A stretch of DNA of 52,303 bases. Source: a virus (taxonomy: Duplodnaviria > Caudoviricetes). Numbering within the stretch: position 1 is the stretch's first letter; the number at the start of each line of letters is the position of its first letter. The position numbers and the translations under genes are program-made. A model generated the notes under the pieces. That model did not search any database and had not been told where the DNA came from. It saw nothing but the letters and a program-made list of their open reading frames with translations. Shown in pieces: positions 28,369 through 30,926 of the stretch. The stretch is taken from the IMG/VR virus record IMGVR_UViG_3300025669_000001, positions 1 through 52,303 of that record, one strand, 5' to 3'.

Positions 28369-28743
28369 ATGAAGAAAGAAATTGACGATTTAGGAACAAG
28401 AACGGGTGTTGCGGTCACGGTCCTCATGTGTGCAATACTATTTTCATTTTACATGATAGACAAAGATAGATTTGAAATTATAGTCGCCAATAAAAAGATA
28501 GAAGCATTACAAGCCATGTCTCACAATCACGAACTACCAGAGAAAGAAACAACCCTTGACGGTCATGTACTTTCTGAATACGTTCAATGCTCATCATGTG
28601 GATGTTTGGTTGTTGTTGATAGCGCAAGTGTTGAGAAGTCAATTAAGCAAAGACTCCATTTCCGTTGGGACGAAGAAAAAGGCGTGTGGAGTAAAGAGGA
28701 CTATATTCATAAATCATATTACTGTAAACGTTGCAAGGAATGA
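28369..28743 (+). CDS. Membrane-anchored Zn-ribbon protein
   Basis: N-terminal TM; CSSCG..YCKRC. Confidence 0.6.
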   Translation: MKKEIDDLGTRTGVAVTVLMCAILFSFYMIDKDRFEIIVANKKIEALQAMSHNHELPEKETTLDGHVLSEYVQCSSCGCLVVVDSASVEKSIKQRLHFRWDEEKGVWSKEDYIHKSYYCKRCKE

Positions 28744-28745
28744 AA

Positions 28746-29270
28746 ATGAGTAAAACAATACAAAAACCCAATGCCCTGCAAGTTGAAACAGTAAGTATTT
28801 CTGAAATCAAGCCATATATCGGGAATGCAAAACAGCATCCAGATTGGCATATAAGGCAGATAGCGTCATCCATTGAGGCGTTCGGATTTAACGATCCCAT
28901 TGCCATTGACGAGAACAATACAATTATCGAGGGTCACGGCAGGTTAATGGCTGCCGAAGTATTAAAACTTGAAACCATTCCTGTAATCAGATTAAGTCAT
29001 ATGAGCAAAGCACAAAAGCAGGCGTATATTATAGCTCATAATAAATTGACAATGAATACTGATTTCGATTCTGAAAAGTTAAGGGTTGAATTGAATGAGT
29101 TGAAAGGGATTGATTTTGATTTGACATTGACCGGGGTTGATTTAAGTGAATTTGAAACTCCTGATTTTTTTCCGGCAAGTGAAGAAGACCAAGGGAAGTT
29201 AGATCAATTGGAACCTAAATGGGTTGTATGCCCTGATTGTGGTAAGGAATTCGATGCAAGGGAAAGTTAA
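28746..29270 (+). CDS. ParB/Srx N-terminal-domain protein (modification-cluster type)
   Basis: IKPYIGNAKQH..SIEAFGFNDPIAID..IIEGHGRLMAA..IAHNKL; C-terminal CPDCG. Confidence 0.9.
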   Translation: MSKTIQKPNALQVETVSISEIKPYIGNAKQHPDWHIRQIASSIEAFGFNDPIAIDENNTIIEGHGRLMAAEVLKLETIPVIRLSHMSKAQKQAYIIAHNKLTMNTDFDSEKLRVELNELKGIDFDLTLTGVDLSEFETPDFFPASEEDQGKLDQLEPKWVVCPDCGKEFDARES

Positions 29271-29964
29271 TTTAAAAGTAGACTGGTGTAGTTATGAAGC
29301 CGCTAAATATGCTTGTTTGCATTGGCATTATTCAAAGTGTACGCCTCAATCTAAACAGGTGTGGATTGGCGTATGGGAGGACGATATTTTTATAGGTGTT
29401 GTGAGTTTTGGAAGATCATCAACTCCATATTTAGGAACGGCTTTTAATTTAGAAACAACGGAATGCGTAGAGTTAACAAGGATTGCATTAAACAAGCACA
29501 AAACGCAGGTGTCTAAGATAGTATCAATTTCATTTAAATTATTAAAAAAACAATCCCCAGGTATAAAATTGATAGTTTCTTTCGCCGATCCATTGCAAGG
29601 GCATTACGGTGGCATATATCAAGCCGGGAATTGGATATATATAGGAACTTCATCTTCAAATATTCAATACTTCTTTAGGAGTAAGTGGCGGAATGACTCT
29701 CCACTTATGCGTCACCTACAAAAGAATCCATTACAAAAAGATATATTGGAAAAAAGGAAAGTTCCGGGCAAACATAAATACTTAATGCCACTCAATAAGG
29801 AAATGAGAAAGCAAATTTTACTATTATCAAAACCATATCCGAAAGCAATTAAATGCCCCACAAGCATTGATAGTGATGCGACCAGCGACCAGCCGGGAGA
29901 AGGCGGTGTAAGTCCGACCGTGGGGCTCCATATAAAGACAGGGCAGGAAAAGATAGATGAGTAA
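29254..29964 (+). CDS. mom: Mom-like GNAT-fold DNA adenine modification enzyme
   Basis: WHYSK, GVVSFG, ELTRIAL, VSFADPLQGHYGGIYQAGNWIYIG, GKHKY, KPYPK; AAGGA RBS before ATG 29254. Confidence 0.85.
   Translation: MQGKVNLKVDWCSYEAAKYACLHWHYSKCTPQSKQVWIGVWEDDIFIGVVSFGRSSTPYLGTAFNLETTECVELTRIALNKHKTQVSKIVSISFKLLKKQSPGIKLIVSFADPLQGHYGGIYQAGNWIYIGTSSSNIQYFFRSKWRNDSPLMRHLQKNPLQKDILEKRKVPGKHKYLMPLNKEMRKQILLLSKPYPKAIKCPTSIDSDATSDQPGEGGVSPTVGLHIKTGQEKIDE
29855..29930 (+). tRNA. tRNA-Gly-like element (anticodon ACC), non-canonical, inside the mom-like CDS
   Basis: 76 nt; acceptor GCCCCAC/GTGGGGC plus T-CCA; D-stem GCAT/ATGC; anticodon arm ACCAG-CGACCAG-CCGGG (3/5 pairs); T-arm GGCGG-TGTAAGT-CCG(A)CC. 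Confidence 0.8.
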
Positions 29965-30427
29965 GAATACACCCAAAATAAACCAAACAGACCCACAAGC
30001 TAAGATCATTATTGATTGGGAAGAGTTTGAAAAGCTATGTGTAATACAAGCAACAGAGGTTGAAATAGCTGAATGGTTTGGGTGTACCGTGCAGACATTA
30101 AATGAGAAATGTAAAGAGTATTATTCTCTAACATTTCTTGAGGTCTTTAAAAAGAAATCTGCAAAAGGTAAATCTTCATTAAGGCGGGCGCAATTTGCAA
30201 CGGCTTTAGGGATTAAAGAAGACGGTAAGTTCACAATCAATCCCAATCCAACAATGCAGATATGGTTAGGCAAGCAACACCTTGGACAAAAGGATAGATC
30301 ACAGTTTTCAAATGATCCTGAACAGCCATTTAACCTGACCGCATTAGTGCGTGCTGGGGCTGAATGCAAGACGAAAGAAGAATTCGATAAAAAATATAAG
30401 AATAAGGGGAATAAAGAAAATGAGTAA
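29957..30427 (+). CDS. terS: Terminase small subunit
   Basis: IDWEEFEKLCVIQATEVEIAEWFGC..GKSSLRRAQF..NPTMQIWLGKQHLGQKD. Confidence 0.8.
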   Translation: MSKNTPKINQTDPQAKIIIDWEEFEKLCVIQATEVEIAEWFGCTVQTLNEKCKEYYSLTFLEVFKKKSAKGKSSLRRAQFATALGIKEDGKFTINPNPTMQIWLGKQHLGQKDRSQFSNDPEQPFNLTALVRAGAECKTKEEFDKKYKNKGNKENE

Positions 30428-30926
30428 AAAGCTATGTCTCAATATCGGAGCCGGTGAAAACACTTTCAAGCATTACCCTACAGATGAATACGATTGTGAG
30501 AACATAGATCAACGCAACCTACCAGGGATTGACTATATATGTACAGTTGGGAAGTTGAGTTGTTATAAACGCTTCAAGAGAAACCAGTATGATTATATTC
30601 TTGCATCTCATATTATAGAACACTTCAATATGGATAAAACCGAATACGTATTAAGGGAATGGTTCAGAGTTCTAAAGTCAGGCGGAACAATAGAATTCAG
30701 AATGCCGAACCTTAAACAAATCATGCGTGAATACCTTGAACATGGACATGCACACCTTGCGTCTAAGCTTCTTTACGGCGATCAGGACTACTCGGGTAAC
30801 TTTCACTATGTTGCATTTGATGAAAGCTGCTTCCTTAGAATCTTACGTGATTTAGATGTTGAATTAGAGGTTTTGCAAATCGAGAAAGAAGGGACTAATA
30901 TGGTAATTTTTGTGAGGAAATTGTAA
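30420..30926 (+). CDS. Class I SAM-dependent methyltransferase (type 11-like)
   Basis: LNIGAG..NID..YILASHIIEHF..EWFRVLKSGG..MPN. Confidence 0.85.
   Translation: MSKKLCLNIGAGENTFKHYPTDEYDCENIDQRNLPGIDYICTVGKLSCYKRFKRNQYDYILASHIIEHFNMDKTEYVLREWFRVLKSGGTIEFRMPNLKQIMREYLEHGHAHLASKLLYGDQDYSGNFHYVAFDESCFLRILRDLDVELEVLQIEKEGTNMVIFVRKL

Follow-up and report, generated by a model that had tools for sequence, protein, structure and literature searches.

The viral contig IMGVR_UViG_3300025669_000001 (IMG/VR; Caudoviricetes), analyzed here over its full 52,303 nucleotides (nt) and referred to as the window, encodes a homolog of Mom, the DNA hypermodification enzyme of phage Mu, and the 3' end of this mom gene coincides with a 76-nt sequence that can be drawn as a tRNA-Gly-like cloverleaf. 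A first-pass annotation, made from the letters of the sequence, had described this cloverleaf and proposed that it supplies glycine to the enzyme in whose gene it lies. The window sequence at 29855-29930 on the plus strand agrees letter for letter with the 76 nt quoted there. The gene, the element and its parts are given below; R1 is the covariance model introduced after them.

29254..29964, plus strand: Mom-like DNA modification gene, 236 aa from the ATG at 29254 (Pfam PF25680, E 1.2e-46; phrog_1384, E 1.4e-51)
29855..29930, plus strand: tRNA-Gly-like RNA element, class I cloverleaf, 76 nt (R1 80.3 bits, E 1.5e-18)
29855..29861, plus strand: 5' strand of the acceptor stem (G1 C2 C3 ...), 7/7 pairs with 29920-29926
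29864..29879, plus strand: D arm, a perfect 4-bp GCAT/ATGC stem with an 8-nt loop (from sequence and alignment)
29881..29897, plus strand: anticodon arm, loop CGACCAG (G33, A34, C35, C36), anticodon ACC at 29888-29890
29902..29919, plus strand: T arm, GGCGG / CCG-A-CC with loop TGTAAGT and a bulged A at 29917
29920..29926, plus strand: 3' strand of the acceptor stem (from sequence and covariation)
29927..29930, plus strand: discriminator U73 at 29927 and encoded CCA at 29928-30 (from sequence)

The gene product matches PF25680 over the full length of the domain, with 159.4 bits against a cut-off of 27.1. The match stops at residue 207, at a PYPK motif whose codons end at 29844, and Mu Mom has ...QPYPK as its own C-terminus. 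Because the Mom domain and Mu Mom both end at PYPK, the last 39 codons of the window gene are an add-on. They read through the element, which begins 10 nt past the PYPK codons, just as the first-pass annotation had placed it. Residues R101 and S114 (in the 231-aa numbering of Mu Mom) are invariant in our Mom alignment and are probably the catalytic R111 and S124 of Silva et al. (Nat Commun 2026, PMC13219725), assuming a numbering offset of 10 residues.

The acceptor, D and T stems of the window copy are complete, and the cloverleaf with its 7-bp acceptor stem is backed by covariation (see below). In the anticodon stem 3/5 pairs form, A27-G43 and A30-C40 being unpaired. The D loop reads TGATAGTG and has no GG, the variable region is 4 nt long, and positions 8 and 9 are both A. 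These details agree with the first-pass annotation, which had listed the perfect acceptor and D stems, the encoded CCA, the three anticodon-stem pairs, G33, the missing U8 and D-loop GG, the TGT in the T loop and the bulged A. Its expectation that standard scanners would pass over the element was borne out: ARAGORN reports no tRNA gene in all 52,303 bases, and the six weak matches to Rfam (E <= 10, positions 29500-30300) do not include tRNA. The minimum free energy (MFE) of the copy is -29.9 kcal/mol (z -2.2), with 3 of 200 shuffles equally stable; the MFE structure retains the acceptor and D stems and drops the other two arms, and a fold constrained to the acceptor, D and T stems comes to -28.8 kcal/mol, 1.1 above the MFE. 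Fold energy of this copy taken alone is only suggestive of a real RNA. It is comparison with relatives that raises the element above chance, since it shows conservation.

A scan of viral contigs with the window Mom returned 300 relatives, of which the best 80, with Mom sequences 44-56% identical to the window's, were retained. The 140 nt that lie 3' of the PYPK codons in these relatives contain the same element at the DNA level. The window copy aligns without gaps to 19 other distinct copies, and covariance model R1 was built from this ungapped alignment (A1) of 20 distinct 76-nt sequences. Standard pairs fill 96.0% of its 420 cells, compared to 34.8-44.0% in slid controls, with the 3' partners displaced by 1-3 columns. 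Both sides have changed at 13 of the 21 pairs, and none of 500 shuffles reached the observed covariation score. RNAalifold, run without a given structure, returned the same cloverleaf including the bulged A, plus a covarying 32:38 pair.

Model R1 matches at full length exactly once in the window and once in each of the best 80 of the 300 viral mom loci (80/80), always on the mom strand and at the mom 3' end, with no other match at E <= 1 in 373 kb. In the whole window the match at 29855-29930 is the sole one at E <= 10, and its 80.3 bits fall inside the spread of the other 76-nt copies (72-95 bits). The first-pass annotation had staked its proposal on a cloverleaf being conserved beside other mom homologs, and in all 80 close loci it is both conserved and covarying. 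Across 59 distinct mom-anchored copies, 97.0% of cells are paired (slid controls, 30-44%), and compensatory changes occur at 18 of the 21 pairs. Because this larger alignment was fitted to R1 it leans towards the structure, a weakness from which A1 is free. The acceptor helix is 99.8% paired among the 59, with 5/7 pairs changed on both sides; the D stem varies between GCAT/ATGC, ACAT/ATGT and GTG./.CAC, and the T stem between GGCGG/CCGACC and GGCAG/CTGACC. Shorter copies of 68-71 nt (class II) have acceptor, anticodon and T arms as in class I and lack the D arm. On this comparative evidence, the 76 nt is a conserved tRNA-Gly-derived RNA gene inside the 3' end of the mom frame.

In 50 of 58 distinct ORF-linked copies, the mom frame continues through the element. 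In the other eight the mom stop starts inside the element, at positions 11, 19, 35, 35, 39, 54, 75 and 75, and the element is retained past that stop. Among 57 copies, the first base of the T stem falls at codon position 1, 2 or 3 in 38, 15 and 4, respectively. Because the element is read in differing phases, the resulting tail peptides are unrelated (..GGATPT.., ..QGSTDPHAP.., ..AQHRPLRSN..). Read-through may simply preserve the stop/start overlap with the next gene.

What the family keeps and what it loses can be set against the published determinants of glycine identity. The bacterial glycyl-tRNA synthetase (GlyRS) relies on G1:C72, C2:G71, C35, C36 and U73, according to passages of PMC10464925. 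All five are present in the window copy, as the first-pass annotation had recognized, and they are conserved across the family: G1:C72, C2:G71 and U73 occur in 59/59 distinct mom-anchored copies, and G3:C70 in 55/59. Of the other marks whose conservation the first-pass annotation had wanted tested, an encoded CCA occurs in 49/59 copies and an NCC anticodon in the loop of 56/58 (UCC 29, ACC 26, GCC 1), where the two misses are failures of the hairpin finder, one of them caused by the weak stem of the window copy. Since the kept positions equal the published determinant set, they can be taken as glycine-type identity marks. The window has none of the elbow and core bases U8, G18G19, T54-Psi55-C56 and U33, carrying A8, no GG, TGT and G33. 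A bulged A interrupts the T stem in 56/59 distinct copies, position 8 is A in 55/59, positions T54-56 read TTC in 10, TGC in 22 and GGC in 11 of the 59, and position 33 may be G, A, C or U. To judge from these alignments, the features of decoding and of the tRNA elbow, position 34 included, are free or lost in the element family, so that the loss of translation features noted in the single copy holds more widely. One further candidate mark against translation, a 5-nt anticodon loop closed by 32:38 pairing, was rejected; normal tRNAGly species also have extended anticodon stems (passages of Rietmeyer et al., PMC7826273).

Linkage to mom was approached from the opposite direction as well, by scanning viral contigs for the motif GGCGG-N7-CCGACC-N5-GCTCCA alone. 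At least 120 contigs matched, partly shared with the set from the Mom scan (e.g., L029/L198 and L051/L194), and the 120 contigs listed were sorted with a Mom hidden Markov model (HMM) built here. In 112 of these 120 the element lies in or adjoins mom, at its 3' end or its 5' start. The positions among the matches listed are:

83/120: element in, or at the 3' end of, the Mom frame
2/120: element just past the mom stop (L148, L220)
1/120: element about 180 nt downstream of mom (L213)
1/120: element 1.3 kb downstream of mom (L157)
26/120: element at the 5' start of the Mom frame, 25 within the stop-to-stop frame and 1 lying 13 nt upstream
1/120: weak Mom match on the opposite strand only
6/120: no match to the Mom HMM, 5 of these having less than 300 nt of contig upstream

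One of the five loci with little upstream sequence still reads ..KPYPK.. in its 73 nt. R1 matches at full length at the motif in all 100 motif loci searched, a set from which L229-L248 were left out. In L197 (9843-9919, minus strand), which has no match to the Mom HMM, the sequence before the element looks like the first codons of mom alone (..IDWATHESTKYA..), a truncated mom start joined to the 3' half of mom, and this locus is probably a deletion derivative.

Copies at the 5' start, found within the range L129-L248 (e.g., L179 7035-7110; L143 6087-6162, minus strand; L133 6023-6101, minus strand), lie mostly inside an open frame and form an N-terminal extension of Mom; in L133 a single base separates the CCA from the mom ATG. 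They resemble normal tRNA more closely: their D loop contains GG and their T loop TTCAAT. ARAGORN assigns a 2-base anticodon (6-nt loop) to 9 of the 19 run, out of 26. The same program calls the element in 2 of 58 viral mom loci run, out of 80. Among 11 selected loci, the Rfam tRNA gathering score is reached in four (L258, L204, L084, L255) and narrowly missed in L143, and the model has no match in L002, L054, L179, L274, L290 and L083. The mom-adjacent copies, compared in this way, form a series from recognizable tRNA to very derived forms. Tandem copies occur at L159 (4375-4444 and 4451-4519, minus strand) and L211 (335-402 and 404-472, minus strand). In a Mom tree (FastTree, 217 rows, core columns) the 3', 5' and element-free architectures are clustered, with at least 11 changes between them; no order of events was taken from the tree, because support is weak and long branches meet.

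The element also occurs in prophages and cultured phages. Applied to 33 prophage mom loci of the genome_contigs collection, R1 matched the 3' end of mom in 21 (E <= 4e-4), and one further copy is cut by a contig end; the other 11 loci, without a match, are mostly from actinomycete prophages. Hosts in the mom-locus records of this collection include Tolumonas, Paraburkholderia, Blastocatellia, Saccharibacteria, Bacteroidetes, Planctomycetota, Calditrichaeota and Oceanicaulis, among others. Cultured phages were represented by 21 mom loci sampled across the hit list, and three of them have a linked copy. In Arthrobacter phage Shade the copy, unannotated and lacking both the bulge and CCA, overlaps the mom stop. 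Psychrobacter phage vB_PmaS_Y8A (L290) has two unannotated tandem copies (1817-1884 and 1889-1957), both in the non-coding 165 nt that separate mom from terS, the gene for the terminase small subunit. In Microbacterium phage Warren the linked RNA is a canonical tRNA-Gly(CCC), already annotated and encoded on the opposite strand at a distance of 33 nt from mom. The loci without an element include Mu, phiEf11 and Listeria A511; R1 has no match on Mu, and a set of 44 Mu-like viral loci with Mom 85-99% identical to that of Mu, too near to Mu to be informative, lay outside the R1 search. A DNA-level search of cultured phages with the window mom region gave only three short matches.

In four whole host genomes, the top R1 match is the mom-linked copy in three (G002-G004), and in the fourth (G001) a host tRNA scores 41.0 bits against 40.5 for the mom-linked copy. 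The remaining matches are host tRNAs, except for extra copies in G004, a deltaproteobacterial metagenome-assembled genome. This genome has at least four class-I-like elements away from an intact mom (L303, L306, L308, L310), and three of its extra R1 matches fall inside 5 kb of one contig. The element in L306 follows a decayed mom C-terminus (..KYLLPLDEKVTERI..), and those in L303 and L308 follow a small ORF that ends RLDGYV.IPGASIFKVS and has no Pfam match. In the prophage L253, the mom-embedded element (2062-2137) is followed after 14 nt by a normal tRNA-Met (CAU) at 2152-2225 (ARAGORN). An archaeal Mom homolog on the chromosome of Methanobacterium ferruginis (L261) is followed at 2097-2176 by a tRNA with A73 and no CCA, which scores 30.2 bits against R1 at the mom 3' end and is called tRNA-Val (UAC) by ARAGORN; over the whole genome, R1 has no match at E <= 0.001. 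This RNA may be an ordinary or integration-site tRNA, and it is counted among the 21 of 33 as a model match only, not as a glycine-type copy.

Work of 2023-2026 has shown that Mom hypermodifies DNA using glycine from charged tRNA, and has left unexplained how the enzyme competes with EF-Tu for a scarce substrate. Passages of Silva et al. (PMC13219725) state that Mu Mom moves glycine from Gly-tRNAGly onto N6 of adenine in double-stranded DNA, in agreement with the co-substrate that the first-pass annotation had given for Mu Mom. According to the same passages, the enzyme accepts all three E. coli tRNAGly isoacceptors but not Gly-tRNAAla, and its authors suspect that recognition occurs near the acceptor end of the tRNA. 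The main text of that paper does not mention the terms tRNA-like, embedded, neighbor, adjacent or genomic context, and its preprint likewise does not mention tRNA-like or embedded. No report of a mom-linked tRNA-like RNA was found in the literature searched, whose coverage excludes subscription journals.

We think it fairly likely, from the conservation described above, that the phage encodes in this element a glycine tRNA which serves as a glycine source for Mom and takes no part in translation. Mom draws its glycine from charged tRNAGly, so the phage probably supplies a private carrier of its own. The element would be co-transcribed with mom in a late transcript that runs from a ParB-like gene through mom to the terminase; host tRNA-processing enzymes would release the RNA, or at least free its CCA 3' end; and host GlyRS, whose determinants are kept, would glycylate it. 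EF-Tu and the ribosome would hold this RNA poorly, because the bulged A interrupts the first three T-stem pairs, and U8, the GG/T-Psi-C elbow and U33 are missing. It would then serve as a private donor of activated glycine for Mom, which would install the carbamoylmethyl modification on N6 of adenine, and co-transcription would supply enzyme and donor jointly, late in infection.

Findings on other glycine tRNAs make such an arrangement plausible. Passages of PMC7826273 report that EF-Tu sequesters proteogenic Gly-tRNA from FmhB, a Fem transferase, that the first three T-stem pairs determine almost entirely how tightly EF-Tu binds the tRNA body, and that in staphylococcal non-proteogenic tRNAGly these pairs are weakened and UGC stands in the T loop. 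The bulged A of the element, lying between the partners of T-stem pairs 2 and 3, would fall in this EF-Tu-sensitive region. U73 shields Gly-tRNAGly from D-aminoacyl-tRNA deacylase (DTD), and EF-Tu augments the shielding (Kuncha et al., PMC6097841). An RNA that escapes EF-Tu would rely wholly on U73 against DTD, which fits the invariance of U73. Where the mom frame runs through the element, as it usually does, one transcript can yield full-length Mom or the RNA, not both, and one may speculate that this either-or output caps the level of a toxic Mom. A wider claim has in our judgment somewhat better than even prospects: that a widespread class of phages and prophages, infecting many phyla, carries a mom-embedded glycine tRNA, excised by the host, charged by GlyRS, ignored by EF-Tu and dedicated to Mom, such that enzyme and co-substrate would be one gene. 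In a bolder variant, the mom mRNA, trimmed to its CCA, would itself be glycylated and feed the Mom translated from it.

Several observations weigh against the proposal that the element is a dedicated glycine donor. Expression, processing, charging, evasion of EF-Tu and use by Mom are all steps that we infer from sequence; the 24 runs listed for window positions 29300-30100 all consist of DNA contigs from salt-lake metagenomes, a kind of data in which RNA ends are not visible. Mu, source of the one Mom studied biochemically, has no element and uses host isoacceptors, and the RNA is therefore dispensable for Mom chemistry as such; in the sample of cultured phages, 18 of 21 mom loci have no element and no tRNA-Gly within 1.2-1.5 kb. 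The encoded CCA is absent in 10/59 copies. The 4:69 pair favored by GlyRS of L. plantarum is purine:pyrimidine, and this enzyme requires the whole L shape (passages of PMC10464925), yet most copies have the reverse pair, pyrimidine:purine, and class II copies have no D arm. The window copy has the weakest anticodon stem among its close relatives; L022, for example, pairs 5/5. On the suggestion of the first-pass annotation that this copy could be decaying, the evidence leans neither way, the weak stem being offset by an R1 score within the spread of the other 76-nt copies. Excision of the RNA would leave a mom mRNA without a stop codon in 50/58 copies. Finally, the mom frame is open through the element in 52/57 copies, against 44/114 of other forward frames, so the protein tail may matter, the figure being descriptive only because the copies are related.

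The most serious rival, though we hold it unlikely, is that the element acts in cis as a tRNA mimic within the mom mRNA and carries no glycine. It could be a feedback site for Mom, a toxic enzyme, or a site for GlyRS, or a cut by RNase P/Z that separates mom from the terminase gene or sets the life-time of the mRNA. Such a role would suit an element that most copies place inside the mom frame, whether at its 3' end or at its 5' start, with that frame kept open, and would suit the overlap of the window mom stop with the ATG of the next gene; Mom is also known to bind tRNA (passages of PMC13219725). Against this, the element keeps C35, C36, U73 and an encoded CCA, none of which a site for binding or cutting would require, and it is only at the acceptor end that the authors of the Mom study suspect recognition (PMC13219725, same passages). 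The free-standing tandem copies and the opposite-strand tRNA-Gly of phage Warren also point to a product that acts in trans.

It is improbable that the element is an ordinary phage tRNA-Gly that serves translation, matched to phage codon usage, and merely happens to lie beside mom. Phages do often carry tRNAs, and some linked copies are near-canonical, with Rfam gathering scores in 4/11 loci and ARAGORN calls of tRNA-Gly in some, yet U8, G18G19, T-Psi-C and U33 are missing from the window copy and most of its relatives, which have A34 and a bulged T stem instead. The element is moreover the sole tRNA-like gene of a 52-kb genome, and a tRNA kept for codon usage would not show the linkage to mom seen in at least 112 of the 120 motif matches listed. 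More improbable again is that the element is a functionless remnant, left either by a phage attachment site or by the capture of a host tRNA gene. Such genes serve temperate phages as integration sites, and the RNA beside mom in the Methanobacterium locus (L261) resembles a normal tRNA that ARAGORN calls Val (UAC). A remnant should decay, though, and here compensatory changes maintain four helices, the bulged A and A8 are conserved across contigs whose Mom is only 44-56% identical to the window's, and the full-length copies are fixed relative to mom, not to an integrase. We give hardly any credence to the idea that only a C-terminal peptide of Mom is conserved, with the RNA fold a by-product or chance. 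The open frame (52/57) and tail peptides that look conserved (..GEGGxTPTxAL..) speak for it, but the same nucleotides, read in three phases, encode unrelated peptides, some stops lie inside the element, non-coding copies exist (Y8A), covariation is strong and Mu Mom ends at PYPK.

If the element is a private glycine donor for Mom, its closest known parallel would be NP1-NP3 tRNAGly of S. aureus and S. epidermidis, extra glycine tRNAs likewise dedicated to GNAT-fold transferases (FmhB, FemA and FemB) outside translation. According to passages of PMC7826273, NP1-NP3 are charged by normal GlyRS, bind the ribosome poorly and are weakened in the T stem, where EF-Tu binds. The element too has an altered T stem, and the TGC at T54-56 in 22/59 element copies may be compared with the staphylococcal UGC. 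In contrast to NP1-NP3, which are cellular, free-standing and confined to one genus, the element is phage-borne and usually lies inside the reading frame of its own enzyme; the target of NP1-NP3 is peptidoglycan, that of the element's Mom is DNA. The T stem is weakened by a bulged A in the element and by A-U pairs in NP1-NP3, and many element copies lack the D arm. This difference in T-stem weakening suggests an origin independent of the staphylococcal tRNAGly. The Mu system, for its part, shares with the window phage the enzyme family (PF25680), the class of co-substrate and probable catalytic residues; Mu has no element and scavenges host tRNA. As with phage tRNA genes in general, the element is of tRNA descent, with intermediate forms recognized by Rfam RF00005, but most copies escape recognition as tRNA, lack the build of a decoding tRNA and go with a single gene, not with codon usage.

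Mimics of tRNA on coding RNA are also known from the 3' tRNA-like structures (TLS) of plant viruses and from tRNA-like pieces cut from longer transcripts. They occur in RNA viruses and eukaryotic transcripts, where they serve replication, translation or processing, and some of them are aminoacylated by host synthetases. We know of none that supplies an enzyme encoded on the same mRNA. The element, unlike viral TLS, has a simple helical acceptor stem and lies within an operon of a DNA phage; as encoded, it does not form the 3' terminus of a viral RNA, since the terminase gene follows immediately 3' on the same strand.

The proposed function is well motivated, and what would be new relative to known dedicated non-proteinogenic tRNAs is the viral origin, the fusion into the frame of the enzyme and the DNA target. 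Were the proposal correct, the phage would meet the competition from EF-Tu with a conserved tRNA-Gly of its own, fused to mom. This tRNA would be only the second known non-proteinogenic tRNA dedicated to a transferase, after that of staphylococcal cell-wall synthesis, and the first in a virus, and would give a clear case of one stretch of DNA serving as both coding sequence and tRNA-like gene. Mom homologs cloned as bare or codon-optimized ORFs may lose their co-substrate. The RNA class is missed by tRNA scanners and annotation pipelines, as the unannotated copies of Shade and Y8A illustrate next to the annotated canonical tRNA-Gly of Warren. The element would also offer a minimal natural scaffold that has GlyRS identity and has shed translation features.

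The immediate neighbors of mom in the window are as follows.

28731..29270, plus strand: ParB-like nuclease-domain gene, overlapping the mom start (phrog_620, E 3.2e-50)
29957..30427, plus strand: terminase small subunit-like gene (terS), its ATG overlapping the mom stop (phrog_309, E 1.5e-09)

A ParB-like gene lies directly upstream of mom and overlaps it in the window and in phages phiEf11, Shade, Warren and Y8A (L082, L083, L084, L290). This conserved ParB-mom pair is a marker of the mom clade that bears the element. An ORF at 30351-30926, overlapping the end of the terS-like gene, resembles S-adenosylmethionine (SAM)-dependent methyltransferases (Pfam Methyltransf_11, E 2e-06), and may provide a second DNA-modification function next to mom.

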